IMG/VR virus record: IMGVR_UViG_3300012016_000004
Location: 1 to 64,000 of that record
Length of the DNA stretch: 64,000 bases
Source of the DNA: a virus
Taxonomy: Duplodnaviria; Caudoviricetes
Strand: one strand, 5' to 3'
Positions 1 to 54,075 of this stretch are shown in pieces. The notes beneath the pieces are model-generated. The model saw only the letters and a program-made list of their open reading frames with translations. It did no database searches and was not told the origin of the DNA. Position 1 is the stretch's first letter. Every line of letters starts with the position of its first letter. The position numbers and the translations under genes are program-made.

Positions 1-45
1 CGAGAACGCGAGGCCGGCATACGCCCCGTTAGTCGCACTCCCGCC
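1..45 (-). other. Start of putative DGR variable region (VR1)
   Basis: Codons GGC GGG AGT GCG ACT AAC GGG GCG TAT GCC GGC CTC GCG TTC TCG fit adenine-mutated AAY codons alternating with fixed codons, within the LFGGxAxNGxxAG CLec motif. Confidence 0.7.
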
Positions 46-1275: not shown

Positions 1276-1303
1276 AATGTTTTATGAATAAAAGGTTACT
1301 TTA

Positions 1304-7300: not shown

Positions 7301-8851
7301 GCGCTTAGTGAACTGAATGGATTCCTGCACACGGCTGTCACGGGTCACTTCCTCTGCCTTATACTCATTGAGCTCCGTGGCGATGGAGGATGTGACCGTG
7401 GCATTCGAGAGCTGGAGCTCCGGATAGTGAGGCTTATTGACGTACTGCTTGATGCCGATGATGCGGATCAGCTCTGCTTCCGTCAAGAACTGGGTGTCCG
7501 AGAAAGAGACAATGCCTCCGAGGACAAGCCTTCCGGAGAGAACAGACCAACCAGCAGCAGCCCACCGACCGTCAAGTACGCCGTTGAATGAGAACCTGGG
7601 GTCTTCATTCTCGAACATGTACTTGACTGCCTGCTTGAACATGTCCCATGATGCGCCGGTGCGGGTCTGATTGTCGCAGATGTAGGAATCCGGCAGTGTG
7701 CATCCGAAGATAGCATACTCATCGCCGACAGCGGCCTTGAAGATGTCGTTCGGCATCGTCTGGCCGTCCAGCTCTGCTGGGACAATCTCGAACCGCCTGG
7801 TGGCATGGTCGTACTTGCTGAGGTCGAACTCCCGGCCGGCGAGCATGCCGGACTGGAAGATGACGGTCAGTGTCTCGCCCTCAATCATGTAGTTGTTATA
7901 GTCCAGAGCTGACGGGATGCTCGTATCAATGAAGTCGTACAGACCCTTGCTCGCATCTACAACCACCCATGACGAAACGGAGCCCACCCGCTTCGGGTAG
8001 CTCTCCGAGCAATCATAGCTATCCTCCGGAGCCAGTGATGAGAGTGTCTTATCGATTCTGCGGATGGACACGCCGTCATCATCCACGATGTATCTCCTGG
8101 CGCGGGATGCCACAAATCCTGGCTCTCCATCGAAGTGCTGGCCATCGTAGCTGAGTTCCTGCCCCTTCGGCAGAAGCAGTGTCTTGCTACCATATGTCGA
8201 GTAGTCAATGTTCCTCTCGCCGCCCTGAACGTACAGAATCTCAAAGGCCCGCGAGTTATCATAGTTCGACCGTCCAAGGCCGGGGATGAAGCCGTTCCCC
8301 TTTCCATAGGACAGCGCAATCGGATTCTCCTTGAACTTCTCCAGCTTGCCGAGACTGATGACCTTCCCTTCAATGGACCACTCTGTGTCAAACTCTTTCG
8401 CCACCATGTCCAGGGCCTCTGCGACCGTATTGTGGTTGAACGAAAGCAGCTTCTCGCCGGCCACGATGCAGCTGCCGACAGACCATCCGGAATCGCGCTG
8501 ATTCATGTTGGCCACGATCATCGTCAGGTACTCCTCCGGGCGTGATGCGGCCTCGAACTTTATGCGTCTGTCAACTGGATTCTTGAACCGATACAGAGAA
8601 AGTCTGCCGGAGTCAGCCTGCAATGTGAGGTCGTAGCTGAACTTCCTCGTGCCATTCTTCTTGAAGTTCGACGGCTTGAGCAAGTAATATGTCGTGCCGT
8701 CAAACACACAGTATGCGCCCACCGGGATGTTCAGATAGCCCTGGTACTCAAAGCTGAGATACAGAGCATCCTCTCCCATTATGCGCCGTGAGCGATAGGC
8801 TTTATCGTCAGGCTGAATCTCGATATACGAGCCGTTGAAATATATCTTCAT
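1304..8851 (-). CDS. Giant tail protein (baseplate hub/central fibre) with collagen-like and internal repeats
   Basis: 2515 aa directly after the Dit-like gene. N-terminus is of Bacteroidota tail-hub type; Gly-X-Y segments; repeated KAETxxQxxDP and KMNSDKV modules. Confidence 0.85.
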   Translation of the reverse strand: MKIYFNGSYIEIQPDDKAYRSRRIMGEDALYLSFEYQGYLNIPVGAYCVFDGTTYYLLKPSNFKKNGTRKFSYDLTLQADSGRLSLYRFKNPVDRRIKFEAASRPEEYLTMIVANMNQRDSGWSVGSCIVAGEKLLSFNHNTVAEALDMVAKEFDTEWSIEGKVISLGKLEKFKENPIALSYGKGNGFIPGLGRSNYDNSRAFEILYVQGGERNIDYSTYGSKTLLLPKGQELSYDGQHFDGEPGFVASRARRYIVDDDGVSIRRIDKTLSSLAPEDSYDCSESYPKRVGSVSSWVVVDASKGLYDFIDTSIPSALDYNNYMIEGETLTVIFQSGMLAGREFDLSKYDHATRRFEIVPAELDGQTMPNDIFKAAVGDEYAIFGCTLPDSYICDNQTRTGASWDMFKQAVKYMFENEDPRFSFNGVLDGRWAAAGWSVLSGRLVLGGIVSFSDTQFLTEAELIRIIGIKQYVNKPHYPELQLSNATVTSSIATELNEYKAEEVTRDSRVQESIQFTKRRWRDLQETAEMLAAAIENYSEAINPISVQTMQLIAGDESLQFRFVTSKVSPITVDSDFTILFDSVSKRLAITGGLTSGASILQHMTIGIATLSSQHDTAEYHFWDIPAFVSEYLNDTDKKYYVYAKVGKSSTTGQFILSETAIGMESVAGYYHLLLGILNSEFEGTRSFAQTYGYTEVLPGRITTDRIVASDGINYFDLQTGELNMSLPNGSQFIKFDENGVHIKGKVVIGAGSSGLAQFTEYPSLIAEIQNRTPYNILLANENAGVACRYDGTVIGALPTSAIQVFYGGSLQSGWAFSLNCTGCTATVANGVITVTGLTADNATVEVTATKTDCPTLKTTMNIIKVRGGGSGVGVQSIEEEYYLSTSPTSLGGGSWGTTVPTWVDGKYIWTRSVITYTDSSSVTTDPVCVTGGKGSTGDDGVGIAGVDVEYYLSESSSQLIGGQWSTTAPAWVNGKYMWSRTHTTYTDGDEDYSDPCCITGAKGEQGIQGPAGQDGRTTYFHVKYSPVANPTDEQMTETPSDYIGTYVDYNPVDSLVPSDYTWSRFKGEDGDQGIPGQDGEDGTTYYLHIAYANSQDGTEDFSTSVSQGKSYIGQYVDENEQDSQTPSDYNWSLIKGEDAVLYMVQPSVSVVKRTWGGTITPSTITCKKYKIVGNQAAAETTEKVLKYSIDGAAETAYSGQISINSGMEYIDFRLYDTDGTTLLDSQRILILNDASEFDVEGMENAIAALEAQMVSTQSVLEKMNSDKVFDATEKAYIRTLWENVNGLPSLDDMGANGSYISTLDIVERSGYATGKQVALSFAQNILKFNEGQDNLMFKYTGLDSFNAAYFNLRDYLRRMQLYDDGFTEGYDREYMASLFTTYYDAQEILLENSQFYYANAASQSAVQTFIEGEYASDIAAVRASIDKKAETFVQSTDPASGWTSPTDVREQHVGDIWWNNGNSTVSGVSSGATAVYRYDQSTSTYYWEETPVPKDVFDKIDGKKTIYTAIPNTAGADGKCYHKDDLWIMESGLTADLVPADAKVGDLLVASSDSTSYNKAHWSKKVRYTDDSALNTFLDGYSGNLTAIRNSIDKKAETWYQATDPSTAWTTGEDKAAHKGDIWHNTSNSTINGVKAGQDAIWSGTAWSVDETVPQEVYDKIDGKSAIYVTWNAWIVNNVSKLQLRDVFIPAEDTTQGGVTYKQNHFYRCINTNPATFAPLSYVDTATLNDFIQNTYQPAIDSLKNQIDGKAETYVQSSDPAAAWTTTEAKKEHVGDMWLNSARTAVSGIGSMKTAIYTQGGTEQSPTFSWAQQNIPNQLFDEIDGKASLYIVKPANYHAKDMWIIGPEIATADLPSECTTGDLVVATQDSVNFNKAHWAKKVKYTDDSSLTEFINGLYADTIEALQESIASTQEAIRKMNSDKVLDESEKGYIRTEWEKVNGKPGFESTGSSGSFETTLEIVAGLGYTEGEKVHLSFANYLLTFAGNKLLFKYRGMDDFKAAFYNLRSYLQSMKLYDAGSTEGFDRTIMSGMFTRYYEAQQLLLANAQKDYTSFLELWASDGYISPVEKRSLVTMKQDESQVYANLIATAALYSNASGTASQQAVYAALQAYNQAYTAFLATINYYTDSATWNDSIAIVTESGAAYSWNYITGYFSSRASLENAIDSAVKVRADDFAYLMDAMPDGASTEIGEGVVLSQVIGVKGSNNTHVVAGMTNGKVGADEVPMIFAGAQNFAGANNAKFRVYRDGSFYAGAGNLTGVLQLASATSGRFEDANIYYLPAVSSESTITLEANVKHIGKVIRMFNSGEAGTHKNYKISCQKFGVSSDGSISWSQFSYDAIVRPEEWAEFTCVKVSSSSSGTDAAWELSGRFSQQEFINQNAFGRFPLVLAMGRFVGGSTVANCSINGSIWNKSDGGNCYGTSLKNNPFIITRVSEGIYDISALSSIIPSGSMMMVCGYGYTSGHSNDYALIATVTNQYTLGDYTHFRVDVHDDTTPNEGSFNFIIFGPYWGYKLS
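2720..5075 (-). repeat. Internal A-B-B-B-A protein repeat array in the tail protein
   Basis: KMNSDKVxDxxEKxYIRTxWExVNG at ~5075 and ~3105; KAET(F/W/Y)xQxxDP...H(V/K)GD(I/M)W...DxIDGK at ~4580, ~4080 and ~3615. Boundaries approximate. Confidence 0.8.
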
Positions 8852-8857
8852 ATTGCT

Positions 8858-9796
8858 TTACTCTCCTTCGTAGAAACAAAGTGTGACGGTGAACTGACAC
8901 CAGATTTGGTTGTCGCCAAGCTTTACAAACTCTCCGAGGCTTTGGCTCTGATAGTAGCATTTGTAGGTCTTCCCCTTCCAGGTCAGAACACGGTTGCCGT
9001 TGGATGCGAATACGCCCAGCAAGCGCAGGTACTCCTTCCAGAATAGACTGGGATTAACCGCCCGCATGAGAAGCGGAATAGAGACCGTTTTAGCCCCCTT
9101 TACGGCGGTGTTGTCCGGGTATAGCTGGCCTTTCATCCCAGTGGCCTTAATGATGAGATTGTCCTTGAGCGGAGCAGCCTTCGTAATCTCATTGTCTGTC
9201 CCATCCAAAACATAGCAGCCGAAGTCTCCGAAGTCCTCGCCGTCCAGCAGGAGGCCGGTCTTCTTCTTGCTGATGACAGCATGGCTCTCCTGGCCGTCGT
9301 CATAATCCGTGAACACAAGCAGGTCTTTGTTGAAGACCAACCTGCTTCCGTTGCGCCGGAAAGTCAGATAGGCCGGAGTGCCAACATACGGCTCCATCTC
9401 ATCGAGGAAGTCAAAGTCGAAAGCGAACTCCAACGTGAAGCATTCCAGAGGAGCAATCTTATCACGAGACACGAGTGACTTGTATCTCAGTGGCATGGTT
9501 ACGCCAATCTCCTTGAAATTGAACACATGGTAGCTCTCGCTCTGGAGCATGGCGATGAAGGCATCAGTGCCGGTCGGTGCCGTCCTGCAGAAGAAGTCCA
9601 CTCTGATGCTATCCTTCGGCTCCAAACTAACCGAAAGGAGGTCCGGCTCTATGCCAGGCTCCTCCGGCCATTCGATATACTGCGGTGTCTTGAGTCTCGG
9701 CCATACGACAACACCGTCAAAGCCACCTTCTGCTATTGCGATTCCGTAATTGACGAGGGCATCATTGCCATCGATTAACAGCCTTCCGGTTCTCAT
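8858..9796 (-). CDS. Distal tail (Dit-like) protein
   Basis: 312 aa between tape measure and tail hub; two similar halves (LLIDGND.../LLLDGED...). Confidence 0.6.
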   Translation of the reverse strand: MRTGRLLIDGNDALVNYGIAIAEGGFDGVVVWPRLKTPQYIEWPEEPGIEPDLLSVSLEPKDSIRVDFFCRTAPTGTDAFIAMLQSESYHVFNFKEIGVTMPLRYKSLVSRDKIAPLECFTLEFAFDFDFLDEMEPYVGTPAYLTFRRNGSRLVFNKDLLVFTDYDDGQESHAVISKKKTGLLLDGEDFGDFGCYVLDGTDNEITKAAPLKDNLIIKATGMKGQLYPDNTAVKGAKTVSIPLLMRAVNPSLFWKEYLRLLGVFASNGNRVLTWKGKTYKCYYQSQSLGEFVKLGDNQIWCQFTVTLCFYEGE

Positions 9797-9807
9797 CTCC
9801 AGTCCTC

Positions 9808-12800
9808 CTATCGTTTGATGGTTACACCCTCTTGCTTCATCCGGCTGATGTCGCTACCGATGGAGTCGAGTCCATCGATGATGTCTCCGGCCTTCTCGTT
9901 CAAAGCCTCGGTATCCTTATGGATGCCCATCACATGCTTGAGGATTGAGCCGGTCATGCCAATCAGCGCAGAGTGAAGCTCGCGCATAGTACGGACATCC
10001 TGCTTCATCTCGTAGGTGTGTCCTTGGATGGTTGTCAGCCTGGCGTTCTGCTCATCTACGGAATCCTGCGATGCCGTGATGCCACTGTTGGTGGCGCCGG
10101 TCCTCGTAGTGTCTTCCTCGTTCATCTGGAGATTGAGTCCACGGAGGAACTGCGTGATGGCCGGGGCTTCCGAGTTGGCCTTATCCAGCAAGCTGTTGTA
10201 GAACTCAATGGCACCAGCGGCATCGTTCGCAAGGAGCATGTTCTTGATTTTCTCCTGGGCGTCCTTGTTGAACACATCTTCCATCAGCATGCTGGTCACA
10301 ACCGACTTGGCCATCTGCTTACCAAAGTCTTTGGCGAGGTCAGTCAAGTCTGCCAAAGCATCCCCGCTTTCGAGGAAGGCATCAACCATCGAGCTGGCCA
10401 CATTCTCCGCGACGCCATTGAACAAGTCGGAGAGGTACTGCGACATACCGTCCATAGCTTCCTCGTATCGCTCCCACTCGGACAAGATGGAATCTACCGT
10501 ATGCTTGGTCTGGTCATCCAGGTAGTCTCCGTACTGGTCATACCATGCCTTGAGCTTGTCCCCGTTCAGCTTGCCGTTCTCATCGTAGAAGTCTGCAAGG
10601 TCAGCAGTGACAATGTTCTTGGATGAGCCCCAGAACTTCTGCCAGCCACTACGCATATCGGCCACCAGTTGACCGGATACCTTGCCAACACCTTCGACCA
10701 CGCCCTTGAGGGCCATGAGGCCACCGCTGAACGGATCGCCGGTGACACCAAGGCCGGCAGTCATAAGGAGCGCACCCCAGTTCCGGAGTACCTTCTGATT
10801 GACCTTCATGCCTTTCTCCAGCTCATCGAGATTGTTGCTGGCCTCCTGCAGCTGCTTATTGAATGCGATGAACTGGCCGTAGCCGTCCTCGCCGAAGGCG
10901 TTCTTGAGTTTATCCAACCTCGCTGCATCATTCAGCTCCTCCAGGGCAATCTTGTATTTGCGGGCCGCTTCCGTAGCACGTTCCGTTGCTTCGTTGTTGG
11001 CCTTGATGATGGAGAAAATCGCCGTGACCACCTTGATAGCAGCCTTGATGATGAGCAGGATGACAGAGGCAGATTCTGCAGCACTGATGGCCTGGGCCGT
11101 CGCTTCGCTGGCCTGCTCTACTCCTTCTGACACTCCTTCTACGGTGTCCTGGAGACCACCAACAATATCCTCGCCCTCCTTGACGAAGATTTCAGTAATC
11201 TCCATTGCGGTGTCACCCACCTCCTCGAACAAGTCAATAGCATCGCCCAGAACCTTGGCAACATCATCATCGAATATGCCTACCAGCTCTACGGCACCAC
11301 CTGCAACCGTACTGATTGTGCCGCGAGCCTTGTTTAGCGCGGAGATGAATTTCATCGAGGAGCTGACAACCTTACCCTGGGCGTTGTTGAGCTTCGCGGT
11401 GCTCTTGGTGAGCTTGTCTTGGGCACCACCCAACTCCATCTGCGCAGACTTCAACTGCTCGTCATATTCCTCTTGGGTAAGAATGCCATCGTTGAGCATG
11501 CTGTCCAACGTGGACTTCTGAATAGCATAGTTGGCGTCAGCAAGAACCATCTCTTGCTGAGCCTTCTTGTATTCCTCCAGGGCAGCAACAGTCTCGTCTT
11601 TAGCGGCTGCTACCTCCTGCATGGAGATGCGCATGGCCGCGAAAGGATTGCGATTGGACAGTTCATCGGAGATGGAGGCGATGGCCTTTTCCATCTCGCT
11701 GATGTCCTTCACATCCATCGACCCTTTGTTCGAGGAGAGGAGAGCCCTCGCTTTTGCAAGGCTTTCAGTGAGAACCCGCGTGGACTGCTCGCCGATGTTA
11801 CCGAACAAGGCAGACCAGTTGATGCTGGACTGCATTCCTTTGAGCTTGACTCCGCTCAACTCCTCGTCCCTCTGTTTGGCCAGAGACTTCTTCTCCCACT
11901 CGTTATTGGACTTGGCAATCAGAGCATTGTACTTCTCTGTGATGGCCAGCTCCTGCTCCTTGATGTTTCCATACTCAGCAAGGTATTGCAAGCGGTGGTC
12001 ATTGAGGGCAAACAGTGCATCGTCCCTCTGCTTGGCCAGCATCTTCTTCTTATACTCGTCATCCTCCTTCTCGATGGCGGCATTGTAGCTCGCTTCGATA
12101 GCCTGCTCCTGCTCCTTGTAGTCACCATAGGTCATCAGATAGTTCCACTCGCTCTGGAGCTTCTCATCGAGGACCTCCTTGGTCTTTTTAGCGGCAATCT
12201 TCTCGGTGTCATCAATGCGCTTCTGGAACTGGGCAAGGGTAGTCTGATCTATCTTGTTTCCGGACTTCCTTCCAGCTTCTTCCAGCTTCTTTTGCTCATC
12301 CTTAATAGCAGCGATAGATTGGAGCTTTTCATTTTCAATCTCGGCCAGGCGCTTTTCGTAGCCATCCTCCATGGCCTCAATCTCCGTATTGGCAACAGAC
12401 ATCCACATATCGCGCACGGCCTGCTTGAATGCGTCGCCATATCGCTTGATTTCTTTCTTCTCCGCGTCTGTAAGAATCTTCTTCGGAGTAGTTGTCGTTG
12501 TCGTATTATCGTCTTTCTTATTGAAGCCGGGAGGAGGCATCGGACCAATGAAGTCATTCTCTGTCCTGGTACGTTCGCCAAAACGCCTATCTGCTTCGGC
12601 CATTACATCAGTAAGAGTCTGAGCAGCGCTCGCAGCGCGAGAGAGCTGCATCTGCATGGCGTTGGTCGTGTATGAATAACTCTGCGCGGCCGTACCCTGG
12701 ACATAGGAGACTGTCTTATCGAAGGAGTCAACGACAGACTTCAATTCATCGCTCATCTCCTGCTTTCCCTCAAGCACTGGCACAATCTTCCAGAAGTATG

Positions 12801-43858: not shown

Positions 43859-44646
43859 ATCCCTATATTGAAGATGTCGATAGGCTCCTGGGCCGGAAGA
43901 CCGAGATAGTCCGTGAGACTTTTCTTCAAGTACACGTTGCGGCCTCTTGACAAAATAGCCTCTGTCATCCGCTCAACCTCGTCGCGATTATACGTCGAGA
44001 GACTGATTCCGCTTTGCAGCCCAACTTTGAACAGGTCACAGCAGTCTTCTATTTGGTAGAACACACTGAGAGTTGATACCGGATCAATCACGGGTTCCAG
44101 AGAGGCGAACGTTCGGAACCCATTCTTCTTGAGTAGGTGCATTGTCTTTACCCGTTTCGTATTGTCAGATGCACCTGGCTCCAAATCATCACGTCCGGTG
44201 AGGGTGAATCCAAAAGCGAGGTACTCGCTATAATGTAACCCACTCGTGTTAGACACAATGCGACTTAATGCTTCATCCAAGATGAAGTCCGCATTCTTTG
44301 TGAGGAGCTGGCACCTTACGCGGCGCTGGATTGCGTAGTCAATACACCTTACGTTCAAAGCTCGTGTCTCCGGAATTAGCGGGTCGCTTGAGAATGTAAA
44401 GAACAGACTCGACTGACGGATCGCATCAATGTTCGAGTCCAGCTCTTTGACAAATACCTCGAAAGCGTGCTGCTCGTTGCGGAAGCAGGATTTCAGTTTA
44501 GCAACGGGGCCACCCATTACATGAGCGAGGACACCCCTCTTGCAGTAGCAGTAGTAGCAGTTGTTGCTGCATCCAACGTACAGATTGCAGGCCCATTCGG
44601 CATACTCGCCGGCCTTGCCTTTCGGCTTGTAGATAGCTTTACTCAT
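43855..44646 (-). CDS. Radical SAM protein (SPL-like)
   Basis: NLYVGCSNNCYYCYC CxxxCxxC motif; SDP, LLTK, ASLEP. Confidence 0.85.
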   Translation of the reverse strand: MSKAIYKPKGKAGEYAEWACNLYVGCSNNCYYCYCKRGVLAHVMGGPVAKLKSCFRNEQHAFEVFVKELDSNIDAIRQSSLFFTFSSDPLIPETRALNVRCIDYAIQRRVRCQLLTKNADFILDEALSRIVSNTSGLHYSEYLAFGFTLTGRDDLEPGASDNTKRVKTMHLLKKNGFRTFASLEPVIDPVSTLSVFYQIEDCCDLFKVGLQSGISLSTYNRDEVERMTEAILSRGRNVYLKKSLTDYLGLPAQEPIDIFNIGM

Positions 44647-44927
44647 TTCTTTCTCAGTTTGATTCTCAGTTTGATACAGACCCTGCGGAGGTTAGACTTG
44701 GCTTCAAGCAGCCTCACGTAGAGCAGGATGGCTTGATAAAACAGCTGGCGCTTCACGAAGTAGTACAGCAGTATCGGGAAGAAGACCGGGCCGAAAATAA
44801 TCGACGTCCGAATGTCCGGGGTAAACGGGAGCTCGGAATCATCCGCGAGCCATTTCGACAACCATGCCGTCAGTAGGCCGGATACGAACCATGCAGGGAT
44901 GATGTAGATTGCTTTACTCATTAGCAA
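44643..44927 (-). CDS. Small membrane protein
   Basis: Hydrophobic segments; 94 aa. Confidence 0.5.
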   Translation of the reverse strand: MLMSKAIYIIPAWFVSGLLTAWLSKWLADDSELPFTPDIRTSIIFGPVFFPILLYYFVKRQLFYQAILLYVRLLEAKSNLRRVCIKLRIKLRKK

Positions 44928-45640
44928 AGAACTTTAATCGTGTCCATGGCCTCACGGATTTCGTCAAGGTGCTCCTCTACATACTTATCGAAGGAACCTT
45001 CCCCACCATAGATTTCGTCAAGGCGTTTTGCAACTTGGCCCAAAGGATTGAGCCATGAATCATTCTTGACAATATCCTGCGGCTCATATAGAGCGATGAG
45101 ATGGTTGTTACGACCGAAGTGGGCAATCATCCCAGCATAAGCAGTGAGCTTGTTATCAGCCTCAATAGAGTATCTGGAACTCATGGCGCCGTATTCGTAT
45201 GTCTGAATCTTGAGCAACCGCTCCACATCCTGGATTGAAAGTGCGATGCCATCCAGAAGACCATACATCAGCTCCGGTTCAATGGAACTTCCCGGAGGGA
45301 TAAACGCGATAACCCTTTTTCCCGCACCCTTCATCCAACCAGCTTCAAGATGAGCACTCCTTCCGCAAGGAAGACAGAGAACACAGATGTCAGCTTCTTT
45401 CATGGCATCGAAATCCCGATTGAAGCCAAACTTTGCATAGTCATCTTTCAGCGCCTTGCGGTACTGTTCCATTGACCAGTTCTGCCATTTTTCATCGAGC
45501 TTGCTCCATTTGAACCCCGGCTTTCCGTCATCCGGATGTTTGAAATCATAAACATCATAGCCCATTAAGCGCAGCTCTTTTACAAGGCTTTCCTGAGCCT
45601 CATTGCGCCAGCTGCTGGCAACATATACTTTCTTTTTCAT
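44921..45640 (-). CDS. Nucleoside 2-deoxyribosyltransferase-like protein with C-terminal extension
   Basis: KVYVASSWRN...DFDAMKEADICVLCLPCGRSAHLEAGWMKG. Confidence 0.8.
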   Translation of the reverse strand: MKKKVYVASSWRNEAQESLVKELRLMGYDVYDFKHPDDGKPGFKWSKLDEKWQNWSMEQYRKALKDDYAKFGFNRDFDAMKEADICVLCLPCGRSAHLEAGWMKGAGKRVIAFIPPGSSIEPELMYGLLDGIALSIQDVERLLKIQTYEYGAMSSRYSIEADNKLTAYAGMIAHFGRNNHLIALYEPQDIVKNDSWLNPLGQVAKRLDEIYGGEGSFDKYVEEHLDEIREAMDTIKVLC

Positions 45641-45657
45641 ATGCTTCCTTTCTTGAG

Positions 45658-45867
45658 TTAATTATCTATCGTATAATCGAAGTTACGCGGGTGCCAAATA
45701 TGCCCACATTCACGACACACGCAATTTGTTCTTACGTGTTCACCACCATCGTCTGCGCCCTCCGCTGTCACTATTCCATCCTCGACCTCGTATATGTAGC
45801 CAGTCACACAATAATCGACGATTTGAAAGCACCGGCTCCCGCATTTCGGGCATTTCTTGTCTGTCAT
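45658..45867 (-). CDS. Small zinc-ribbon protein
   Basis: CPKCG...CRECG. Confidence 0.6.
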   Translation of the reverse strand: MTDKKCPKCGSRCFQIVDYCVTGYIYEVEDGIVTAEGADDGGEHVRTNCVCRECGHIWHPRNFDYTIDN

Positions 45868-46343
45868 TTCTGCCCCTCCTTTCTTGCGTTAAGTCCAAGT
45901 TCGTAGAAGTGGCGAGCAATTTCTTTTATATCGCCAACCGTCATGCTCTGGTTGCCGAAATGGTTGCAAGTACAAAGCCCCAAATCTTCGTCAATGGTCA
46001 TGTCTGGCAATTCAAGGATAAGGAGTTTCTCCAAATCCACCTCCGGCCGCTCCTGCTCAATGGAATCATTACGGATATATTCTATTGCAGTCATATCTTG
46101 CGGGGCGTAAGACATATCAATTGTCTTGTTATCTTTTGTTCTCGCATATAGGTATTTAGGGAAGACAAATTTCCCGCTTTGAACCTCCGGCTGCTCTTGC
46201 TGGAGGGACTCAACAATATCTATAGCTTGTAGCAATCCAGCATCCTTACCTTGTTCCCACTCATCGTAATCCCTATCAACAACGGTTGGTATTAGATGCT
46301 TTCTTAACTCGGAAATCAGTTTGTCTGCGTCAATGCACTTCAT
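45864..46343 (-). CDS. Hypothetical protein
   Basis: MKCIDADKLI...; two QQEQP-like repeats. Confidence 0.6.
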   Translation of the reverse strand: MKCIDADKLISELRKHLIPTVVDRDYDEWEQGKDAGLLQAIDIVESLQQEQPEVQSGKFVFPKYLYARTKDNKTIDMSYAPQDMTAIEYIRNDSIEQERPEVDLEKLLILELPDMTIDEDLGLCTCNHFGNQSMTVGDIKEIARHFYELGLNARKEGQK

Positions 46344-46539
46344 ATAATCTGTTATGTCTTAAAGTTATCGGCCACCATTTGGCTTTCCAGAGAGAACGGC
46401 AGTTAAGATGATTGATTTCATCTCCATAAATGTTTTCCATCCATTCAGCATGATTCTCTGGATTCTTACAGTTCTTGAAGAATAGTTCTATGATAAGTGT
46501 CAATATAATCATAGGGCCAGGTGTTTTCGTGGAAAACAA
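46330..46539 (-). CDS. Hypothetical protein
   Basis: 69-aa ORF. Confidence 0.45.
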   Translation of the reverse strand: MFSTKTPGPMIILTLIIELFFKNCKNPENHAEWMENIYGDEINHLNCRSLWKAKWWPITLRHNRLYEVH

Positions 46540-46547
46540 AATTCATA

Positions 46548-47381
46548 TTACTCGAACATTTGAGCTTCACACCAGTACAGAGGATAACAGTCCTGCTCGG
46601 CAATACCGATTTGTTGGGCAACATCATCTGCGCCCTGGCTCCATATTACACGGATTATCCGACGATCGCCAAGGAACAAGAATACATCCATACCGTCATC
46701 CGGCTTCTTTTCTGCAATCTTCTTCCAATGGCCATAGTCCTTCTTCTCGCTCTCACGAGGCGCTATCCGAGAATGGCACCAACGATGGTAGTGCTCCAAT
46801 ACCGTGTCCTCTGTTTCGTACGGCTCTACCAAGATTGAGGCACTGTTAAAGGACAACATAATAGGACGTCCTTCTTCTTTAACCATCTCGACTGCTTCCT
46901 TTGCAGCCTTCTGAATAGTGGTGCCGGCAATCGGTCTGAATACGCGAATCGTGTCTTTATGCGTTTGACGAATATCCTTATATGGCTTTAATCGAAGTTC
47001 TTTAATAAGTGCGTCTGCATATGAGATTGCATTACACATTACGTGCTTCTTGAAATATGCGTTGTCAAACTGAGCGGCAACTGAGTGGCCACTGAAACGC
47101 TTATACCACATAGGGTTCGCAAGGATGGATGCTGCAAATCGAGTGGCCGCTTCTTTTCTGAATTCAGAGACAGAATCTGATTCTTCTCCAGTCAGAACCT
47201 GGAGGCAGGATGGGAACATATATGCCTGGTGGCCATCCTCTGTACGACAGAGGAAAAGCCGACCGCCTGGGATATTCCAAATGCCTTCTGAATCCGTCTC
47301 CATCCCTGGGACGATCTCAACCACATCTCCCTTCTTGAAGTTCGGGGAGTACGGAGTTTCTTCTATTACTTTTGCTTTCAT
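46548..47381 (-). CDS. Hypothetical multi-domain protein
   Basis: Probable start MKAKVIEE at 47381; mosaic of short modules. Confidence 0.6.
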   Translation of the reverse strand: MKAKVIEETPYSPNFKKGDVVEIVPGMETDSEGIWNIPGGRLFLCRTEDGHQAYMFPSCLQVLTGEESDSVSEFRKEAATRFAASILANPMWYKRFSGHSVAAQFDNAYFKKHVMCNAISYADALIKELRLKPYKDIRQTHKDTIRVFRPIAGTTIQKAAKEAVEMVKEEGRPIMLSFNSASILVEPYETEDTVLEHYHRWCHSRIAPRESEKKDYGHWKKIAEKKPDDGMDVFLFLGDRRIIRVIWSQGADDVAQQIGIAEQDCYPLYWCEAQMFE

Positions 47382-47635
47382 TTCTTTAACATCTTTTCTG
47401 TGACATACATTGCGGTATAGCATCCGAGGAAGTTCGTAAATGCTTGGACTAAGAGAGCTGTCAGCAAGTCATAGTCTGCAATAAACTTGATAACGACCGC
47501 TGAGAAAGTATAGCAGATGCAATTGGCGAAGCTACCTACCAGCTTTGATGGGTGCTTGATTATGACTATGTTCTTTGCAGTATGCAGGAACACGTTCAAA
47601 AAACCGACAACGATATAAACGAGTAAACGAATCAT
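47378..47635 (-). CDS. Small multi-pass membrane protein
   Basis: Three hydrophobic segments in 85 aa. Confidence 0.65.
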   Translation of the reverse strand: MIRLLVYIVVGFLNVFLHTAKNIVIIKHPSKLVGSFANCICYTFSAVVIKFIADYDLLTALLVQAFTNFLGCYTAMYVTEKMLKK

Positions 47636-48138
47636 TTCTTCCTGAACTTATTTGACTGGTAGCGTGCAAACTTGTGCTGCTCTCGTAAAGCGTTAGCCCT
47701 TTTTCTCCTATCGTCTTCGATACGGACTTCGACTTGGGAGAAGAAATCTTTGATGTCTATCTTCGGCTCGAAACATTCTTCTTTGGGCTGAAAGCTTTCT
47801 GTTACTATTTCGTCCGGAATAACGCTTGTAATGTCTTTGATTTCTTTTGGAAGAGTCTGAATACCGATGTCATCACCTATCTCTGGTCTAACGACTATTC
47901 TTACCACGTTGTATTCTTTTGCAAAGAACGCTACCGATTTTGTAACATCGGAACTCCCAACAAAAAGGACAATCGGGTTTTTGCTCGCCTTTGCACGAAT
48001 AAGCGATTCGACTTCTTCACGAAATTCACACTCCTCCGTGCAGCCAACACAACGGGCCTTGTACTTCACTTGACCACGTCCGTATTTCAGTGTTGGGCAA
48101 TACGGATTTCCAAGCAGATCAAACTCTATCTTTGACAT
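47632..48138 (-). CDS. Hypothetical protein
   Basis: Probable start MSKIEF at 48138; Cys cluster near the N-terminus. Confidence 0.5.
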   Translation of the reverse strand: MSKIEFDLLGNPYCPTLKYGRGQVKYKARCVGCTEECEFREEVESLIRAKASKNPIVLFVGSSDVTKSVAFFAKEYNVVRIVVRPEIGDDIGIQTLPKEIKDITSVIPDEIVTESFQPKEECFEPKIDIKDFFSQVEVRIEDDRRKRANALREQHKFARYQSNKFRKK

Positions 48139-48146
48139 CTTGTGAG

Positions 48147-48986
48147 TTATTTCGAATACTTCAAATAGCCTTCGACGATAAAATACTCGTCCGAACACGT
48201 GCCGTCAGTGAAGTAGTTCAGACTATTGATAGACGTCTCCACCGTTCGCCAAAAATTGACTTCCTTGCCATAGAGCATATATCTCTGCGCAAGGTGGAAA
48301 TCTGTTATTCTATCCTGCTTATGCGCATCAGAGAACTTCTCATAGAAGCGCTCATACAGAGTAATGTCTTCTTCCAGCAGTTCGTACCTTGTGTCGGTGG
48401 ATATTCTTCTAACTTGGATGTATCGAACGTTTTCAAACTTGCTGATATACTTGATGAGGTCATCGAATTCATCCACGTTATATCTGCAGAGAACGATTGA
48501 AATTCGAACATTATCTCCGCTTGCAGGAATGATATAATCCCAGTCCGGAATCGTACTGAAGCCCATTATCTTCTTGTTGACGTCCGGCTTCAATGTGTGG
48601 ATGGAATACGCAATCTCGTCCTTCATTGCGTGAATGCAATCCATCTTCTGTTTGGCAAGGATGCCGTTGGTTCTGACACCAACGAGGAAGCCCTGGCCCT
48701 GCAGAAAATCAATAATCTCGGCCAAATACTTGTACTGGAGACCGTCAGCCGTTTGGCCGGTCAGATAGAGCTTCTTGATTCCTTCCTCTTTACATGTCTC
48801 AAGGAACGTATCAAAGTTCTTCCACTCTGAAAAGTGTACGTTCAGCTGGTTCTTTCCAGCGAGATTCTCGCTGATGTCTTTTCCAAGGCAGAAATAGCAA
48901 TTTGCATTGCAGGCGCCAAGCAGGTTGATGTTCGCGAAAGAGAATCCTTCGCGGTTTCTATTCTTTTTGATTTCAACTTTTTCCAT
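48147..48986 (-). CDS. Radical SAM protein
   Basis: NLLGACNANCYFC; YLTG; RTNG. Confidence 0.85.
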   Translation of the reverse strand: MEKVEIKKNRNREGFSFANINLLGACNANCYFCLGKDISENLAGKNQLNVHFSEWKNFDTFLETCKEEGIKKLYLTGQTADGLQYKYLAEIIDFLQGQGFLVGVRTNGILAKQKMDCIHAMKDEIAYSIHTLKPDVNKKIMGFSTIPDWDYIIPASGDNVRISIVLCRYNVDEFDDLIKYISKFENVRYIQVRRISTDTRYELLEEDITLYERFYEKFSDAHKQDRITDFHLAQRYMLYGKEVNFWRTVETSINSLNYFTDGTCSDEYFIVEGYLKYSK

Positions 48987-48999
48987 AATTCAAACTTTT

Positions 49000-49197
49000 T
49001 TACCCCCGCACCATTCTTCCAACATTGTTCAGATGATTCTGGACGGCCAGAGCGATGTCGTGGCATACCTTCTTGCTGCGGATTTTAATCCGGCAGTCCC
49101 CGGTCACACCGTCATAGCCGGGGATGACAATTTCCACGACCGGGGACTGCCGAATAGCCTCGACAAGAATCCTTTCGTTCTTCTCAAGACCTTTCAT
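49000..49197 (-). CDS. Hypothetical protein
   Basis: MKGLEKNE..., 65 aa, starting right at the upstream stop. Confidence 0.45.
   Translation of the reverse strand: MKGLEKNERILVEAIRQSPVVEIVIPGYDGVTGDCRIKIRSKKVCHDIALAVQNHLNNVGRMVRG
49091..49152. repeat. 15-bp perfect inverted repeat
   Basis: cggcagtccccggtc (49091-49105) / gaccggggactgccg (49138-49152), 32-nt spacer. Confidence 0.85.
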
Positions 49198-49198
49198 G

Positions 49199-49747
49199 CT
49201 ACTTCTCCTCCAGAAGAAGGTAATCTGCGTAGAGTTGCGTGAACGTGGTCGCTGCGTAAAGCGCGAGGTCGCTACTTTTGAAGCAAAGCCGAGAGCCGAA
49301 GTGCGCATACGTATGCGAGGGGGCGTTAGGCGAGTACGAGCACGCGAGGCCGGCAGTATTCTTTATTCCTTGGACACGGACTACGGTGTAGCCATTTCTG
49401 CGGTATTCATCGAACTCGTTTTCCTTGAGCATGATGAACCAGGGCCAATAGACATAGCATTCACCGCGCTTCTGAGGATGCTCCCATCCTTCATTCAGAG
49501 CCTTAGTGATGGTCTCCAGCTTGAGCATTGCAGAGACATGGCGCTTTTCTCGCTCCGGGAGATAATCGAAGTTGACCGGCTTGATTCCGAGAACCTTGCA
49601 GGCATCTTCATAGGACTTTACGACATCGGTAATCTTGACCTTGCAGTCATTGCCGAACAGATGCTCCAGCATTTCGCGCTGGGATGGATTACCATTTCTC
49701 CAGGCATCCTGGACGGACTCTTGCGAGACCACTAATTCTTTCTTCAT
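49199..49747 (-). CDS. Small early protein with a DGR VR-like C-terminal motif
   Basis: ...KLETITKALNEGW...YWPWF...AGLACSYSPNAPSHTYAHFGSRLCFKS; first gene behind a promoter cassette. Confidence 0.8.
   Translation of the reverse strand: MKKELVVSQESVQDAWRNGNPSQREMLEHLFGNDCKVKITDVVKSYEDACKVLGIKPVNFDYLPEREKRHVSAMLKLETITKALNEGWEHPQKRGECYVYWPWFIMLKENEFDEYRRNGYTVVRVQGIKNTAGLACSYSPNAPSHTYAHFGSRLCFKSSDLALYAATTFTQLYADYLLLEEK
49280..49357 (-). other. Putative second DGR variable region (VR2)
   Basis: 18/19-nt identity (49337-49355) with bases 1-19; codon pattern consistent with adenine-mutated AAY codons. Confidence 0.6.
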
Positions 49748-49855
49748 AAACCACTTTCGTTAATTTGTTTTTTTGGTATTGTAAATCTAATCATTATTTT
49801 GGAAATATCAAAATATAATCAGCTTATTTTCAAGCATTTGCACACATATTTGCAA
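49748..49855 (-). promoter_or_regulatory. Repeated early promoter cassette, copy 4
   Basis: TAGATTTA box, tggtattgtaaatctaatcatt core (plus strand), AACGAAAGT leader. Confidence 0.65.
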
Positions 49856-51140
49856 TGCGCTGGATTCTTCCCATATTGCGGTTAACCAACCGGACAATCC
49901 GCTTGTGATAAGGACTCGAAGTGTCTCCATAGCCACGAGACTGGAGGACAATGAACTCCTTTGTGCTGATCTCGACCGTTTCAGCACGCTTTCCGTCAAC
50001 CCTCGCTGTCATCAGAAGGGTTCCGTTCTTGTAGTATTCGCAACGGAAGACGCAGTGACCGAGATGGTTTCCTTCCTCCAGGACTTCCTTGACAGAGCGC
50101 AGCGTTCTGATGGTCAGCTCGTGGTCAGTGAACTCCAGTCCGAAGTAAGGAGCCATCTTCTTGACGTAAGCCGGGTTATCTCGTTCTGCTTTGGCCAGGT
50201 CTTCCTTCTTGGTTGTCTTCTTGGCGCGTCTCGCCTGCATCTGGAAGTGAGTCCGGGCCAGGTCATCCGGGCAAAGGTAGTAGGGGCTATGAATGTCCAG
50301 CCCCAGCTCCTGCAGGTCTCCGATATAGTCGCACCACGTCCTTACATCAGTGAACTTGTACTTGTGCCTGGTGGCAACATTGATGGCCTCCCAGGGAACG
50401 TTGATGAGCTTCGAGTCGGCCCTCAGCCGTTCAACGAATAGATTGCGGTAGCCTCTCTTGAGCAGAATCTCAGAGATGGGGTCTGTCAGCACAGAGACGA
50501 TCTGGCGCCATGAGCAGACCTCGTCAGAAAGCCTCGTAAGACCTCTCTGCTTGACGGACGGCAGGAACTTGCATCCGCTGGCGATATATCCTCCGATACC
50601 ACTATACCGACGGTGCCAGCATCGAAGCTCCATCGATGACTCGAACCTCCATAGGTCGTAGTACAGATTGCTCATATTCGTCAGCTTGGCGAAGACAGTT
50701 GTCTTCCCATCCTGGCCTATCCAAATCTGACAGACCTCATCAATGAAGTCACGTTTCTGCTCCTCTCTGATTGACGTTCCGTAGAACTTGACCGGCCTGG
50801 TTCTGTGGGTGCTGACAAAGAACATCCTCTGAATCTGGAACTCGCCGGCCACATCCATCAGTTCGTAGTAATACCGGCTCTCTATTGAGTGCTTTTGCGT
50901 GTTCCTTACCGGGAGGCGCTTGTGGCAGTGCGGGCAAACTGAGCGGCCATTGTCAAGGGCCTTCTTCCATACCTGGGTATCTTCCCAAATGTGACCGCAG
51001 TCAGTACACCACGCCTCCTTCTTGGTTGCTATGATTTCGCCGTTCTTATGGAATGCTTCTTCCTTCTGCCTTGCCGTCAGAGGGCGTAGCAAGGGACGAA
51101 GCTCGATGCAACGGCGTTCTCTATCAGTGGTGGGTTTCAT
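49830..51140 (-). CDS. PcfJ-domain protein
   Basis: Zn-ribbon N-terminus; C-terminal LRSVKEVLEEGNHLGHCVF...YY...RVDGKRAETVE...QSRG. Confidence 0.85.
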   Translation of the reverse strand: MKPTTDRERRCIELRPLLRPLTARQKEEAFHKNGEIIATKKEAWCTDCGHIWEDTQVWKKALDNGRSVCPHCHKRLPVRNTQKHSIESRYYYELMDVAGEFQIQRMFFVSTHRTRPVKFYGTSIREEQKRDFIDEVCQIWIGQDGKTTVFAKLTNMSNLYYDLWRFESSMELRCWHRRYSGIGGYIASGCKFLPSVKQRGLTRLSDEVCSWRQIVSVLTDPISEILLKRGYRNLFVERLRADSKLINVPWEAINVATRHKYKFTDVRTWCDYIGDLQELGLDIHSPYYLCPDDLARTHFQMQARRAKKTTKKEDLAKAERDNPAYVKKMAPYFGLEFTDHELTIRTLRSVKEVLEEGNHLGHCVFRCEYYKNGTLLMTARVDGKRAETVEISTKEFIVLQSRGYGDTSSPYHKRIVRLVNRNMGRIQRIANMCANA

Positions 51141-51143
51141 AGG

Positions 51144-51614
51144 CTACTCGTCGAACAAGAACATCACTCCACTCTCCTCCTCCTTCTGACGCTTCTCTTT
51201 TGACTTCTGACGGCGTTTCTCCTCCTCAGCCTTAATCTTCCTCGCCTCCTCCTCCGCGAGTCGCTCTATGGCCTTCTCTCGCGCCTTAGCTTTGTCTTCC
51301 TCACTCAGCTCCACTCCCGGAGTTGCGGTTGCGACCGAACCGACGCCATCCATCTTGCGAATCTCAATCTTCTCCTCATCGTAGTAGTGGACGGCGAGGC
51401 CGAAGCACTCCTGGCGTGACGGCATGGCAACGGCGACGCGCTTTCCGCCCGCCTCCTTGACGTACTTGTGAAATATCTCGCCCTCGATGAACTCAAGGCA
51501 CTTGTCTATGCTCTTGTCCGGGTTGGCGAGCTTCTGGGCGAAAACCGGATCACCGGCAGCATAGGTTTCAAGGTACGCTTGAATCGCCTCCTGGATTGTC
51601 TGAAACTGGCTCAT
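51144..51614 (-). CDS. PcfK-like / AcrIIA9-family protein
   Basis: IQAYLE...DPVFAQKLANPDKSIDKCLEFI...ECFGLAVHYYDEEKIE; adjacent to PcfJ. Confidence 0.75.
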   Translation of the reverse strand: MSQFQTIQEAIQAYLETYAAGDPVFAQKLANPDKSIDKCLEFIEGEIFHKYVKEAGGKRVAVAMPSRQECFGLAVHYYDEEKIEIRKMDGVGSVATATPGVELSEEDKAKAREKAIERLAEEEARKIKAEEEKRRQKSKEKRQKEEESGVMFLFDE

Positions 51615-51643
51615 AATACTTACTTTCGTTATGGATGGTTATC

Positions 51644-51847
51644 CTATTTGCTTACTTGGCTTAATTGGATGCAGTTGTAACCGCCACAAGGCATGCATGC
51701 AATCGTGGGCTTCGTGCATCCCGTGATGTAAAGGTCTCCGGTATCACATCCGACCACAATCTGGAAAACGCCGGTCTTTGTCTCGATATTGATGCGATTG
51801 GCTTCTGTCTCATAGACCACATCGCCGACGGAATCTGTCACTTTCAT
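51644..51847 (-). CDS. Hypothetical protein
   Basis: 67-aa ORF. Confidence 0.5.
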   Translation of the reverse strand: MKVTDSVGDVVYETEANRINIETKTGVFQIVVGCDTGDLYITGCTKPTIACMPCGGYNCIQLSQVSK

Positions 51848-52572
51848 AGGCCGAGCAACTTATTCGTATCCGGAACACGTAGGATGTCAACCTTGCATTG
51901 ACGAGTGAATCCTCCTGCCTCAGTAGCCGTGTAGTGTAACTCCAAAAGCTGATACTTGATTCTGCATTCGCACATCCACCCGTCATCAAGGATATGGAGC
52001 CATGCATCCGGGAATCTTTTCTTCACGGCCTCCTGGAACTCGTGGTTCTTTGCATTAGCCGTCTCGATATACTCCCGCTTGGCATCGTTCTCATTGAGGA
52101 GATACTCTACCCAGGCTTCAATCTTCTTCTTGGATGCCTTGCCGATGAAATTCGGCCTTTCCTCATCATTGTACTTGAAGTCTCTTAAACGGCCTTCAAC
52201 CTTGTCTTCTCTGTCCAAGAAAAGGCCGAATGTCTTGGCATTCCATGAATCCTTCCACGGAACCAGCACCAAGCCGGGCTTAATCCTTGGATTATCAGAC
52301 TTGATGATGCGGATGCAATACTGGGCTATCTCGAAACTGATGTACGTCTCAGGCTCGCCGTTGAACGTATTCCCGCATTGTTCGCGGAACTCATAGACAT
52401 CGACCACCTCAGAGAAACCTTCGATTTCGAAGGCATCTTTGAGGACCTGGAGATTGTCATCAAGATAGTGGCGATGCGCCCCGTTCTCGATGTCACTCAG
52501 ATAGTAGTCTTTCAAGTAGGTGCAATGCTCACGGGCAAATTGCAGAGCTTGTTCTTTTCCGATTACATTCAT
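51844..52572 (-). CDS. Hypothetical protein
   Basis: 242 aa; leader motif upstream. Confidence 0.7.
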   Translation of the reverse strand: MNVIGKEQALQFAREHCTYLKDYYLSDIENGAHRHYLDDNLQVLKDAFEIEGFSEVVDVYEFREQCGNTFNGEPETYISFEIAQYCIRIIKSDNPRIKPGLVLVPWKDSWNAKTFGLFLDREDKVEGRLRDFKYNDEERPNFIGKASKKKIEAWVEYLLNENDAKREYIETANAKNHEFQEAVKKRFPDAWLHILDDGWMCECRIKYQLLELHYTATEAGGFTRQCKVDILRVPDTNKLLGL

Positions 52573-52608
52573 AAACTTACTTCGTTATCTTGTTAAACTT
52601 ACTTTCTA

Positions 52609-53037
52609 TCAATAATGTGGGTCGATGCTGTGCATCTGATAGTGGAGCATCAGTATGACCGAATGCGGAGATGTTTCCTGCCCATCCATATACCAACGTC
52701 CGTTTCTGCGTAGAGTGAAGCGGTCTGTACGACCTTCCTCCAGCTCTGGTAGAATCTCGTAGTTATCAGCAAAGTAATCGATGCACTTCGTCTTGTTATG
52801 AGTGACAATGACGGCTTTGGGCTTGCCAGCCTTCGTGTACTCAACTTCGGTGATGGTAGCAGCTCTCTTGTCAGAATAGTAGCAGATCGTGCATCCACGA
52901 CCGACCTCTGGAATGATTTCCCGGATGGCCAGCTCTTTCTCCTTCCGGAGTGCGGATGCATCTTCTCTCGTCTTATACGCATTCTTGATGCGCTCAGTCA
53001 ACTTTTCGACCCTCTCGTATGATTCTGCAGGTGTCAT
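52609..53037 (-). CDS. Hypothetical protein
   Basis: 142 aa; PEVG.G.T...SD..AATI...FTLRRNGRW. Confidence 0.7.
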   Translation of the reverse strand: MTPAESYERVEKLTERIKNAYKTREDASALRKEKELAIREIIPEVGRGCTICYYSDKRAATITEVEYTKAGKPKAVIVTHNKTKCIDYFADNYEILPELEEGRTDRFTLRRNGRWYMDGQETSPHSVILMLHYQMHSIDPHY

Positions 53038-53042
53038 AGCTA

Positions 53043-53564
53043 TTAGTCTCTATCGTAATACCATCCATTCCAGTTGCTATCCATAAACACATTACGGTGG
53101 TAGCCTTTCAAGCAAAGGGCAATCTCTTTCAGCTGGTCATAGCTGAGCTGGCAGTCCTTGTCAATCCGGAACACGCTCTTTTTGAAGTCATCCCTGGAGC
53201 AATACCTCCGGTTCTTCTCGACGTAGTAGCGAATTTCGCCGGAGTAGAACTGCCCAGTTCGCTCGCGCTCCTCCTTGGAGTTCTCCGTCTTCTTGATTCC
53301 CATAACATCCCAGTTCCTGCAGGGATTGTCGGAACCGAACAGAATCGCATTCCCATCCGCATCCTTCATCGGATGCTCATTCGTCTTGGACTTGAGGTGC
53401 AGCGGCTGCTTGGCATACGATACCTCGTTGAACCGTGCTATGATGTAGGCAATCAGTTCCGCTCTGAGAGTCTTCTCAAGCTCCTCGCGGGCCTTGGCCA
53501 CCTGCTCATTGAACTTCTCAATGGCTTTGGTGGTTCTTTCGATAGCGTCAGTCATCTTTTCCAT
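53043..53564 (-). CDS. Hypothetical protein
   Basis: Probable start MEKMTD at 53564. Confidence 0.6.
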   Translation of the reverse strand: MEKMTDAIERTTKAIEKFNEQVAKAREELEKTLRAELIAYIIARFNEVSYAKQPLHLKSKTNEHPMKDADGNAILFGSDNPCRNWDVMGIKKTENSKEERERTGQFYSGEIRYYVEKNRRYCSRDDFKKSVFRIDKDCQLSYDQLKEIALCLKGYHRNVFMDSNWNGWYYDRD

Positions 53565-53568
53565 AGCC

Positions 53569-54075
53569 TTACACCTCCATTCCTCTGTTATACTTGAAAT
53601 GGTCGATGACAGCCGTGACTGACATAAGGCCGTCTGACAGATTCCATCTTTTTTCGTGGTCTCCTGCCATAATCGCATCCTCAATGAGTTTGTCGTAGAA
53701 AAGGACAATCTCATCGCGCTTATCCTTGAGCTGCTCGTTGGTCAGACCAGCCAGGTCGAGCTTTTCGGCAATCATCTTGATTTCTTCTTCGCTGGTGAAA
53801 TGCTTGTCTTTCGGCTGATAGTCTTTCAGCCAGTCCAGAGAACCAAGCAACTCAGTATGCTGGAGGTTTCCCCATCCATCTGACTTCCTTGCGGAAGACC
53901 AGTATTCGGTGTACTCATCATCACCCCACTGAACCGGTTTGTCCAGGGCGATCTTTACTGAGACAGTGTACTCGTCTTCGTTGATTTCGGTGATGGTTCC
54001 AGTGACGGCCATTGCGGTGAAAACACCCTTGACCTTGCGTCCGATGATGGACTGATTGACTTCTTGGACTTTCAT
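53569..54075 (-). CDS. Hypothetical early protein
   Basis: 168 aa; first gene behind a promoter cassette. Confidence 0.7.
   Translation of the reverse strand: MKVQEVNQSIIGRKVKGVFTAMAVTGTITEINEDEYTVSVKIALDKPVQWGDDEYTEYWSSARKSDGWGNLQHTELLGSLDWLKDYQPKDKHFTSEEEIKMIAEKLDLAGLTNEQLKDKRDEIVLFYDKLIEDAIMAGDHEKRWNLSDGLMSVTAVIDHFKYNRGMEV

Follow-up and report, generated by a model that had tools for sequence, protein, structure and literature searches.

A small variable gene and a truncated tail adhesin

The stretch analysed here, referred to as the window, comprises bases 1-64,000 of a 72,008-bp IMG/VR contig classed as linear, and the gene under study lies on its minus strand at positions 49,199-49,747. 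This open reading frame encodes a 182-aa variable protein that matches the phrog_11581 profile over residues 7-180 (E 3e-42) and has 655 homologues at E≤1e-10; in addition, residues 131-159 are matched by the last part of the profile of phrog_5302, a tail-protein family. The window starts within another gene of interest, located at positions 1-1275 on the same strand, which encodes a tail adhesin of family phrog_5302 (E 5.5e-82; profile positions 150-522 of 548) and is cut at the contig start, so that the 425-aa fragment leaves the contig edge at profile position 522, the complete protein being 438-447 aa long. No Pfam domain was found in either protein. The adhesin gene and the small distal gene are hereafter referred to as target gene 1 and target gene 2, respectively.

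Within target gene 2, the 77-nt segment at 49,281-49,357 (minus strand; residues 131-156, TAGLACSYSPNAPSHTYAHFGSRLCF) corresponds to the variable repeat VR2, which includes a 3' boundary segment at 49,281-49,297 (GGCTCTCGGCTTTGCTT). The end of VR2 and the stop codon are separated by 26 codons that encode a conserved C-terminal helix; the repeat is thus near the 3' end of the gene and not terminal, and the same layout, a variable repeat followed by a C-terminal helix, is found throughout the family. No hairpin was detected downstream of VR2 (z +0.5). The window allele also contains a 14-nt perfect palindrome within VR2 (CGCATACGTATGCG, 49,304-49,317), which is probably an incidental product of particular adenine substitutions (AAT ACG AAT to CAT ACG TAT).

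Upstream of target gene 2, an AT-rich gap of 82 nt (49,748-49,829) contains a Bacteroidota-like promoter pair predicted by reading the sequence (TTTG, about 19 nt, and TAGATTTA), as well as the phage's AACGAAAGT leader ahead of the ATG. The gene directly upstream is PcfJ-like (49,830-51,140, minus strand; Pfam PF14284 and PF14058 on the identical gene order in contigs L063-L071), and the order PcfK, PcfJ, target, 65-aa ORF and radical SAM is kept in sister contigs. In sister contigs 95-99% identical to the window, N6_N4 methyltransferase and RtcB genes lie 6-8 kb from target gene 2; radical SAM, dUTPase and RusA genes are also found nearby, with the methyltransferase, RtcB, dUTPase and RusA all within 8 kb. 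The radical SAM gene, two ORFs downstream (window 48,147-48,986, minus strand), is matched by PADLOC pVip models (E 2e-10 and 2e-7), and it may encode a phage viperin-like enzyme, or the matches may merely reflect general radical SAM similarity. PADLOC gave no match for the target, PcfJ or the 65-aa ORF.

Template and reverse transcriptase beyond the contig edge

The original prediction started from a short echo between both genes and proposed that one DGR template diversifies the adhesin and, some 49 kb away, target gene 2. Bases 1-19 and 49,337-49,355 indeed differ at a single base (18/19 identical; codon TTC versus TGC on the minus, coding strand), and the pair is unique in the 72-kb genome at up to 3 mismatches; a blastn search rates the 19-mer alone no better than E 0.011. 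On the 5' side in the coding direction, the similarity breaks off sharply, the adjoining 60 nt being identical at 15/60 positions (chance level), and on the 3' side the adhesin copy is truncated by the contig start.

Neither a reverse transcriptase (RT; PF00078) nor, by an adenine-tolerant scan, a TR-like copy was found in the 72-kb contig. Reading the contig as a circle was rejected, as its ends share no terminal repeat and the variable repeat is not continued at the other end (16/80 identical). The sequence left of base 1 was instead found through P0135, a full-length relative of the adhesin fragment (100% identity, 438 aa, ending ...AGLAFSISNNAPSNTNASIGSRLCFIP), whose contig, L072, is a 30-kb ENA scaffold. 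This sister contig is 100.000% identical to window 1-11,251 (11,251 bases in common, free of mismatches and gaps), window base 1 corresponding to L072 11251, and it continues past that base with the rest of the adhesin repeat, a hairpin, a 115-aa ORF, the template (TR), the RT gene, lysis genes and bacterial genes. The adhesin repeat, VR1, spans L072 11192-11308 (117 nt in full), its 5' 60 nt being window positions 1-60 (minus strand), and is followed by a strong hairpin and a T-run (z -3.5). The 117-nt TR is located at L072 11784-11900, and the RT, encoded by a single ORF (L072 12031-13074; 347 aa; PF00078 E 2e-15, phrog_1423 E 1.5e-121), displays the DGR-type motifs IGNYLSQ at residue 182 and YADD at residue 214. 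In the window phage, by comparison with L072, both TR and RT are thus placed downstream of the tail adhesin gene, TR about 0.5-0.65 kb and RT about 0.8-1.8 kb to the left of base 1, which agrees with the expectation that both were to be sought just outside the window. The window's contig broke in assembly inside VR1, and only for this reason are TR and RT absent from it; assemblies are known to break at variable repeats (PMC8008677). The link between TR and VR2 for the window phage accordingly passes through sister contig L072.

The 115-aa ORF between the adhesin gene and TR (L072 11413-11760) belongs to phrog_19665; it has no Pfam match and is not recognisably Avd. This family accompanies RT in three other cassettes, and in RT-adjacent cassettes it is placed just after RT; proteins of about 105-115 aa occur with a DGR at L001 9402-9755, L010 5129-5443, L029 4648-4962 and L008 4660-4971. 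On these grounds, phrog_19665 is a candidate DGR accessory protein.

After the DGR, L072 carries lysis genes (GH108) and then the bacterial genes BipA, YceD and L32 (13455-21317), and the right end of the window's contig, outside the window (G000 69220-71860), carries an integrase and an IS-type transposase. The bacterial genes at one end and the integrase and transposase at the other point to an integrated Bacteroides-type prophage of roughly 76 kb with the DGR at one end.

Alignment of the coding strand of VR2 (window 49,281-49,357) to TR (L072 11823-11899) revealed 12 mismatches over 77 nt, all of them at TR adenines, with none at the 57 other positions; the chance expectation of a match of this type in the genome is about 5e-29. 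Over the 117 nt shared by TR and VR1, the 10 mismatches are likewise all at TR adenines, so the same TR matches both repeats, as had been proposed. VR1 corresponds to the whole 117 nt of TR and VR2 to its 3' 77 nt only (the 3' two-thirds), and the ends of VR1 and VR2 fall within one base of each other. The codons quoted for VR2 in the original prediction (TAC TCG CCT AAC GCC CCC TCG CAT ACG TAT GCG CAC TTC GGC TCT CGG CTT TGC) are correct, as is the protein ending GSRLCF (...FGSRLCF). The true TR reads AAT GCC GGC CTC GCG TAC TCG AAC TCG AAT AAC ACC CCC TCG AAT ACG AAT GCG AAC ATC GGC TCT CAG CTT AGC, and it bears out the ancestral codons that had been guessed: the TAT and ACT codons that precede the echo in VR1 and VR2 both correspond to AAT, and the single mismatch within the 19-mer represents a TAC codon in TR that became TTC in VR1 and TGC in VR2.

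At the 3' boundary, both repeats carry CGG...TGC where TR has CAG...AGC, and the same two differences are present in the close relative L001. These differences lie within the last 17 nt of VR2 and are essentially fixed, being invariant in 8/9 alleles, a pattern from which we infer that this segment is an IMH/IMH*-like homing boundary. In the remaining allele, L077 (P0126), the codon for residue 153 retains the CAG of TR, giving GSQLCF instead of GSRLCF, which suggests that homing may occasionally reach further 3' than usual.

Variation among alleles and the writing of VR2

Variation was assessed between samples and contigs. At the protein level, a 90%-identity cluster around the 182-aa protein contains 16 members from different samples, and these same-species variants differ almost only at residues 132, 136, 138, 140-141, 145-147 and 149-150. 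At the DNA level, the window and ten other copies of the gene represent nine distinct alleles, in which 18 of the 20 TR-adenine positions of VR2 vary, versus 4/57 of the other positions (Fisher p = 7e-12), all four being singletons. Only 17/472 gene positions vary outside VR2, most of them third positions of codons (p = 8e-11 for the VR against the remainder of the gene). Allelic variation is thus confined almost entirely to the positions where it had been predicted. Further, the VR2 alleles of contigs L075 and L076 are different despite the 99.5-99.6% identity of these contigs to the window over 1,749 bases that surround the gene, a pattern that argues for recent diversification. A pattern search using the VR2 flanks returned one match in metagenome contigs and none in viral contigs.

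None of the three conditions under which the original prediction would have failed, namely a lack of TR and RT, mismatches to TR at non-adenine positions and a lack of variation in the segment, was encountered. Taken together, the adenine-only match to TR and the corresponding variation among alleles bear out the proposal that target gene 2 is a remote second DGR target, and we consider, with a probability of about 0.93, that the segment at 49,281-49,357 is a working VR2 of the DGR whose TR and RT would sit beyond the left end of the contig. The TR RNA would be reverse-transcribed with adenine-specific errors, and the cDNA would then replace two homologous recipient segments, namely VR1 at the end of the adhesin gene, which would take the whole 117-nt TR, and VR2 in the 182-aa gene, about 49.8 kb away, which would take its 3' 77 nt only.

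Three other accounts of VR2 were weighed against this mechanism. The original prediction itself cautioned that a conserved protein motif could be common to two protein families with no DGR involved, and a motif of this kind, AG..(F/Y/C)S...APS....GSRLCF, does recur in adhesins of many phages. This account is essentially untenable, since the repeat matches a non-coding TR in its DNA and departs from it strictly at adenines, and a shared motif cannot account for the pattern of variation between alleles; both observations together refute it. Another possibility is that VR2 is a relic, written by the DGR in the past and no longer a recipient, with old, inherited differences among alleles; the lack of a downstream hairpin and the partial match to TR would fit such a history. 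Drift, however, would be expected at all bases, and the window strain shows no non-adenine difference from TR; this, the polymorphism of nearly all the adenine positions in only nine alleles and the distinct VR2 alleles of the almost identical contigs L075 and L076 make a relic very improbable.

The third account involves gene conversion, by which VR2 would have its variation copied from VR1 through homologous recombination and not by retrohoming of its own. The two repeats share 77 nt of homology, and conversion from a DGR-diversified VR1 would likewise yield adenine-only differences from TR. However, in the window strain VR1 (…FSISNNAPSNTNASI…) and VR2 (…CSYSPNAPSHTYAHF…) differ at most variable codons; moreover, the family of target gene 2 is the target located directly beside RT in eight phage lineages, and multi-target retrohoming is well documented (PMC5758913). 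We therefore regard gene conversion as exceedingly improbable, and retrohoming as the process that would write VR2.

A recurrent target family, its relatives and the role of the protein

Relatives of the 182-aa protein were found on 43 viral contigs with 25-38% identity. Within groups of near-identical phages, these proteins are invariant except for a scattered hypervariable patch, which is followed by a conserved (G/V)(S/V/P)RL.F motif and the C-terminal helix. A DGR-type RT is present in 16/38 records with a homologue, most records being fragments, and in 14 of these 16 the homologue is matched by a local TR, the mismatches per 60 nt numbering 0-2 at non-adenine and 5-15 at adenine positions; in the other two, L044 and L023, no TR match to the homologue was found in the stretches examined. 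Target, TR and RT follow one another directly, in this order, in eight of the 14 records, whereas RT is about 3 kb away in four and about 50 kb away in G029 and G030, where no second variable repeat was found in the 3.6-kb RT loci. Around the RT-adjacent cassettes lie genes for exonuclease/FtsK-like, HNH, RusA, methyltransferase and anti-repressor proteins. Tandem paralogues of the target occur by RT at L010 (2998-3474 and 3478-3951) and L046 (2511-2993, 3001-3483 and 3504-3899), one copy per locus having been compared with TR, and in these two phage lineages the paralogues may represent multiple targets. The small proteins of phrog_11581 thus constitute a recurrent DGR target across many Bacteroidota phages.

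The closest published parallel is found in the 'Quimbyviridae', temperate Bacteroides phages that occur in abundance and have a median genome size of 75 kb, whose DGR has two variable repeats, one in the gene after the tail fibres and the other in a distal gene read as non-structural, which has methyltransferases and a tRNA ligase as neighbours (Benler et al., 2021, Microbiome 9:78; PMC8008677). In Quimbyvirus, 22 adenine sites vary between near-identical genomes, both targets were called C-type lectin proteins by HHpred, and a role in phage-host conflict was proposed (PMC8008677). Therefore, a DGR that diversifies a distant gene together with the adhesin, which the original prediction took as unusual, had already been described: the two-target arrangement was published in 2021 for related gut phages, and the feature reported here is real and of a known kind.

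For comparison with this lineage, to which Quimbyvirus (OMAC01000147.1) belongs, we used LoVEphage, PV4-TP1 and BI-TP1. A Quimbyvirus protospacer (PMC8008677 supplement) is present at 100% in LoVEphage and PV4-TP1, and the link between LoVEphage and Quimbyvirus rests on this protospacer together with the split RT. As in the window phage, one DGR serves two targets in these temperate Bacteroidaceae phages of about 72-77 kb, one target after the tail-fibre genes and beside TR and RT, and a small distal one in a block with methyltransferases, radical SAM enzymes and a tRNA ligase. By tblastn, the window protein aligns over 98% of its length with LoVEphage, BI-TP1 and PV4-TP1 at 34-37% identity, and it is 36% identical to the LoVEphage/BI-TP1 protein (E 3e-22); the 194-aa LoVEphage homologue in turn matches its own TR with 0 non-adenine mismatches over about 108 nt. 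By this homology, the window gene is a divergent member of the LoVEphage/Quimbyvirus target family; a megablast of window 44,000-54,000 against GenBank phages returned no match.

Several traits set the window phage apart. Its RT is a single ORF, whereas in the Quimbyvirus lineage the RT is split over reading frames, for which programmed frameshifting was proposed (PMC8008677). In LoVEphage (OY725593.1, 41816-42401) and BI-TP1 (PQ571265.1, 5332-5917), RT is split over two frames, with Pfam positions 8-93 and 114-187 in different ORFs and the TR/VR pattern intact, which agrees with that proposal. The distance between target and RT is about 50 kb here versus about 15 kb in LoVEphage, VR2 uses 77 of the 117 TR bases versus about 108 in LoVEphage, and the target lies on the same strand as the tail genes, whereas it is on the opposite strand in Quimbyvirus (PMC8008677). 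The single-ORF RT, the larger distance, the partial use of TR and the lack of a downstream hairpin thus distinguish this phage from the published case.

The core of the system resembles that of Bordetella phage BPP-1 (Mtd, TR, Brt and Avd), in which an RT with the [LIV]GxxxSQ motif also carries out adenine-specific transfer from TR to VR, the VR encodes a ligand-binding surface near the C-terminus and the TR/VR differences at the 3' boundary are fixed. In contrast, the BPP-1 target is single, adjacent and structural, and homing is aided there by a hairpin/cruciform after the VR (PMC3240598), which VR2 lacks, and here the Avd position is taken by the phrog_19665 ORF, with no Avd homologue recognised. 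Wu et al. (2018, NAR 46:11; PMC5758913) found many prophage DGRs with a non-adjacent target, almost always within 50 kb, besides an adjacent one; the survey of Roux et al. (2021) was unable to detect non-adjacent targets. Two-target DGRs are also known from the tentaclin gut phages, in which VR2 is shorter than VR1 and uses fewer TR adenines (PMC10743442); both of their targets lie in the cassette and are read as receptor-binding, unlike the second target here, which is far away in a DNA-metabolism block.

As for its structure, the 182-aa protein contains neither a signal peptide nor a hydrophobic segment. An AlphaFold2 model built with 55 homologues is of good confidence and mostly helical (pLDDT 85, pTM 0.80), with lower confidence in the VR loop (about 62). 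Foldseek against the PDB gave nothing at E≤0.001, and the best hit of a VIA-align 2 wide search (pdb_via_wide) was the SSV19 tail chain (Z 4.0), with no C-type lectin among the matches listed; a profile search against PDB sequences returned only E>0.5, and the ESM Atlas only unnamed viral clusters of about 194 aa. Profile-profile comparison (hhalign) aligned residues ~77-154 with the last ~80 residues of the adhesin (probability 97%, E 3e-11, with the VR dominating the signal), a homology by which both targets share a variable C-terminal module. The sequences thus describe what appears to be a small soluble protein whose scaffold is conserved apart from a 20-residue patch, in which about ten residues are hypervariable.

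Two roles were considered for this protein. We give roughly even odds to its being a non-structural ligand binder that acts inside the cell in phage-host conflict, a suggestion that draws on the lack of a hydrophobic segment, the neighbouring DNA-metabolism and modification genes, and the similar genes around the RT-adjacent cassettes. The rival view concerns function only and takes the protein as a virion-associated accessory for host recognition, such as a tip adhesin or a fibre-bound lectin encoded outside the tail module, in which case the DGR would diversify two parts of one adsorption apparatus. The homology between its C-terminal ~80 residues and the variable module of the adhesin fits this view, as does the GenBank record of phage Versailles, in which a homologue is labelled 'tail protein', and other phages do encode small distal adhesins away from their fibre genes, as exemplified by T4-type gp38. 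The Versailles label, however, probably derives from the common VR motif alone; the gene is on the same strand as, and within, the DNA-metabolism and modification block, both here and in the Quimbyvirus lineage; its neighbours in the eight RT-adjacent cassettes are replication, recombination and methylase genes, not tail genes; and VR1 and VR2 of the window strain are unlike at most variable positions. We therefore hold a virion-associated role to be unlikely.

Returning to the intracellular binder, we tentatively extend this reading to the whole phrog_11581 family, whose members would be DGR-diversified proteins with a fold unlike solved C-type lectins, tracking a fast-changing cytoplasmic partner; with the same reserve, this partner could be a host defence protein or a protein of a competing phage. 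An intracellular binder engaged in counter-defence, for which our own estimate ranges from tentative to about even, is the same hypothesis as that put forward in the literature.

With regard to DGR detection, the window shows that a 19-nt echo can reveal such an element even where an assembly break in a variable repeat has removed its RT and TR, and it adds a caution for DGR surveys of fragmented metagenomes, in which non-adjacent targets are missed by design (PMC8144416). These results add to the known case a second phage lineage, divergent from it, whose single template diversifies a tail adhesin as well as a small protein encoded among DNA-modification genes. Phages of this type are frequent in the human gut, and cultures exist of some relatives (BI-TP1 and PV4-TP1), so the question of the ligand is open to experiment. 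If proteins of this family do track a cytoplasmic partner, programmed hypermutation would serve counter-defence or superinfection control instead of adsorption, and the phrog_11581 protein would be the primary target of the DGR in several lineages, where it is RT-adjacent and sometimes tandemly duplicated.
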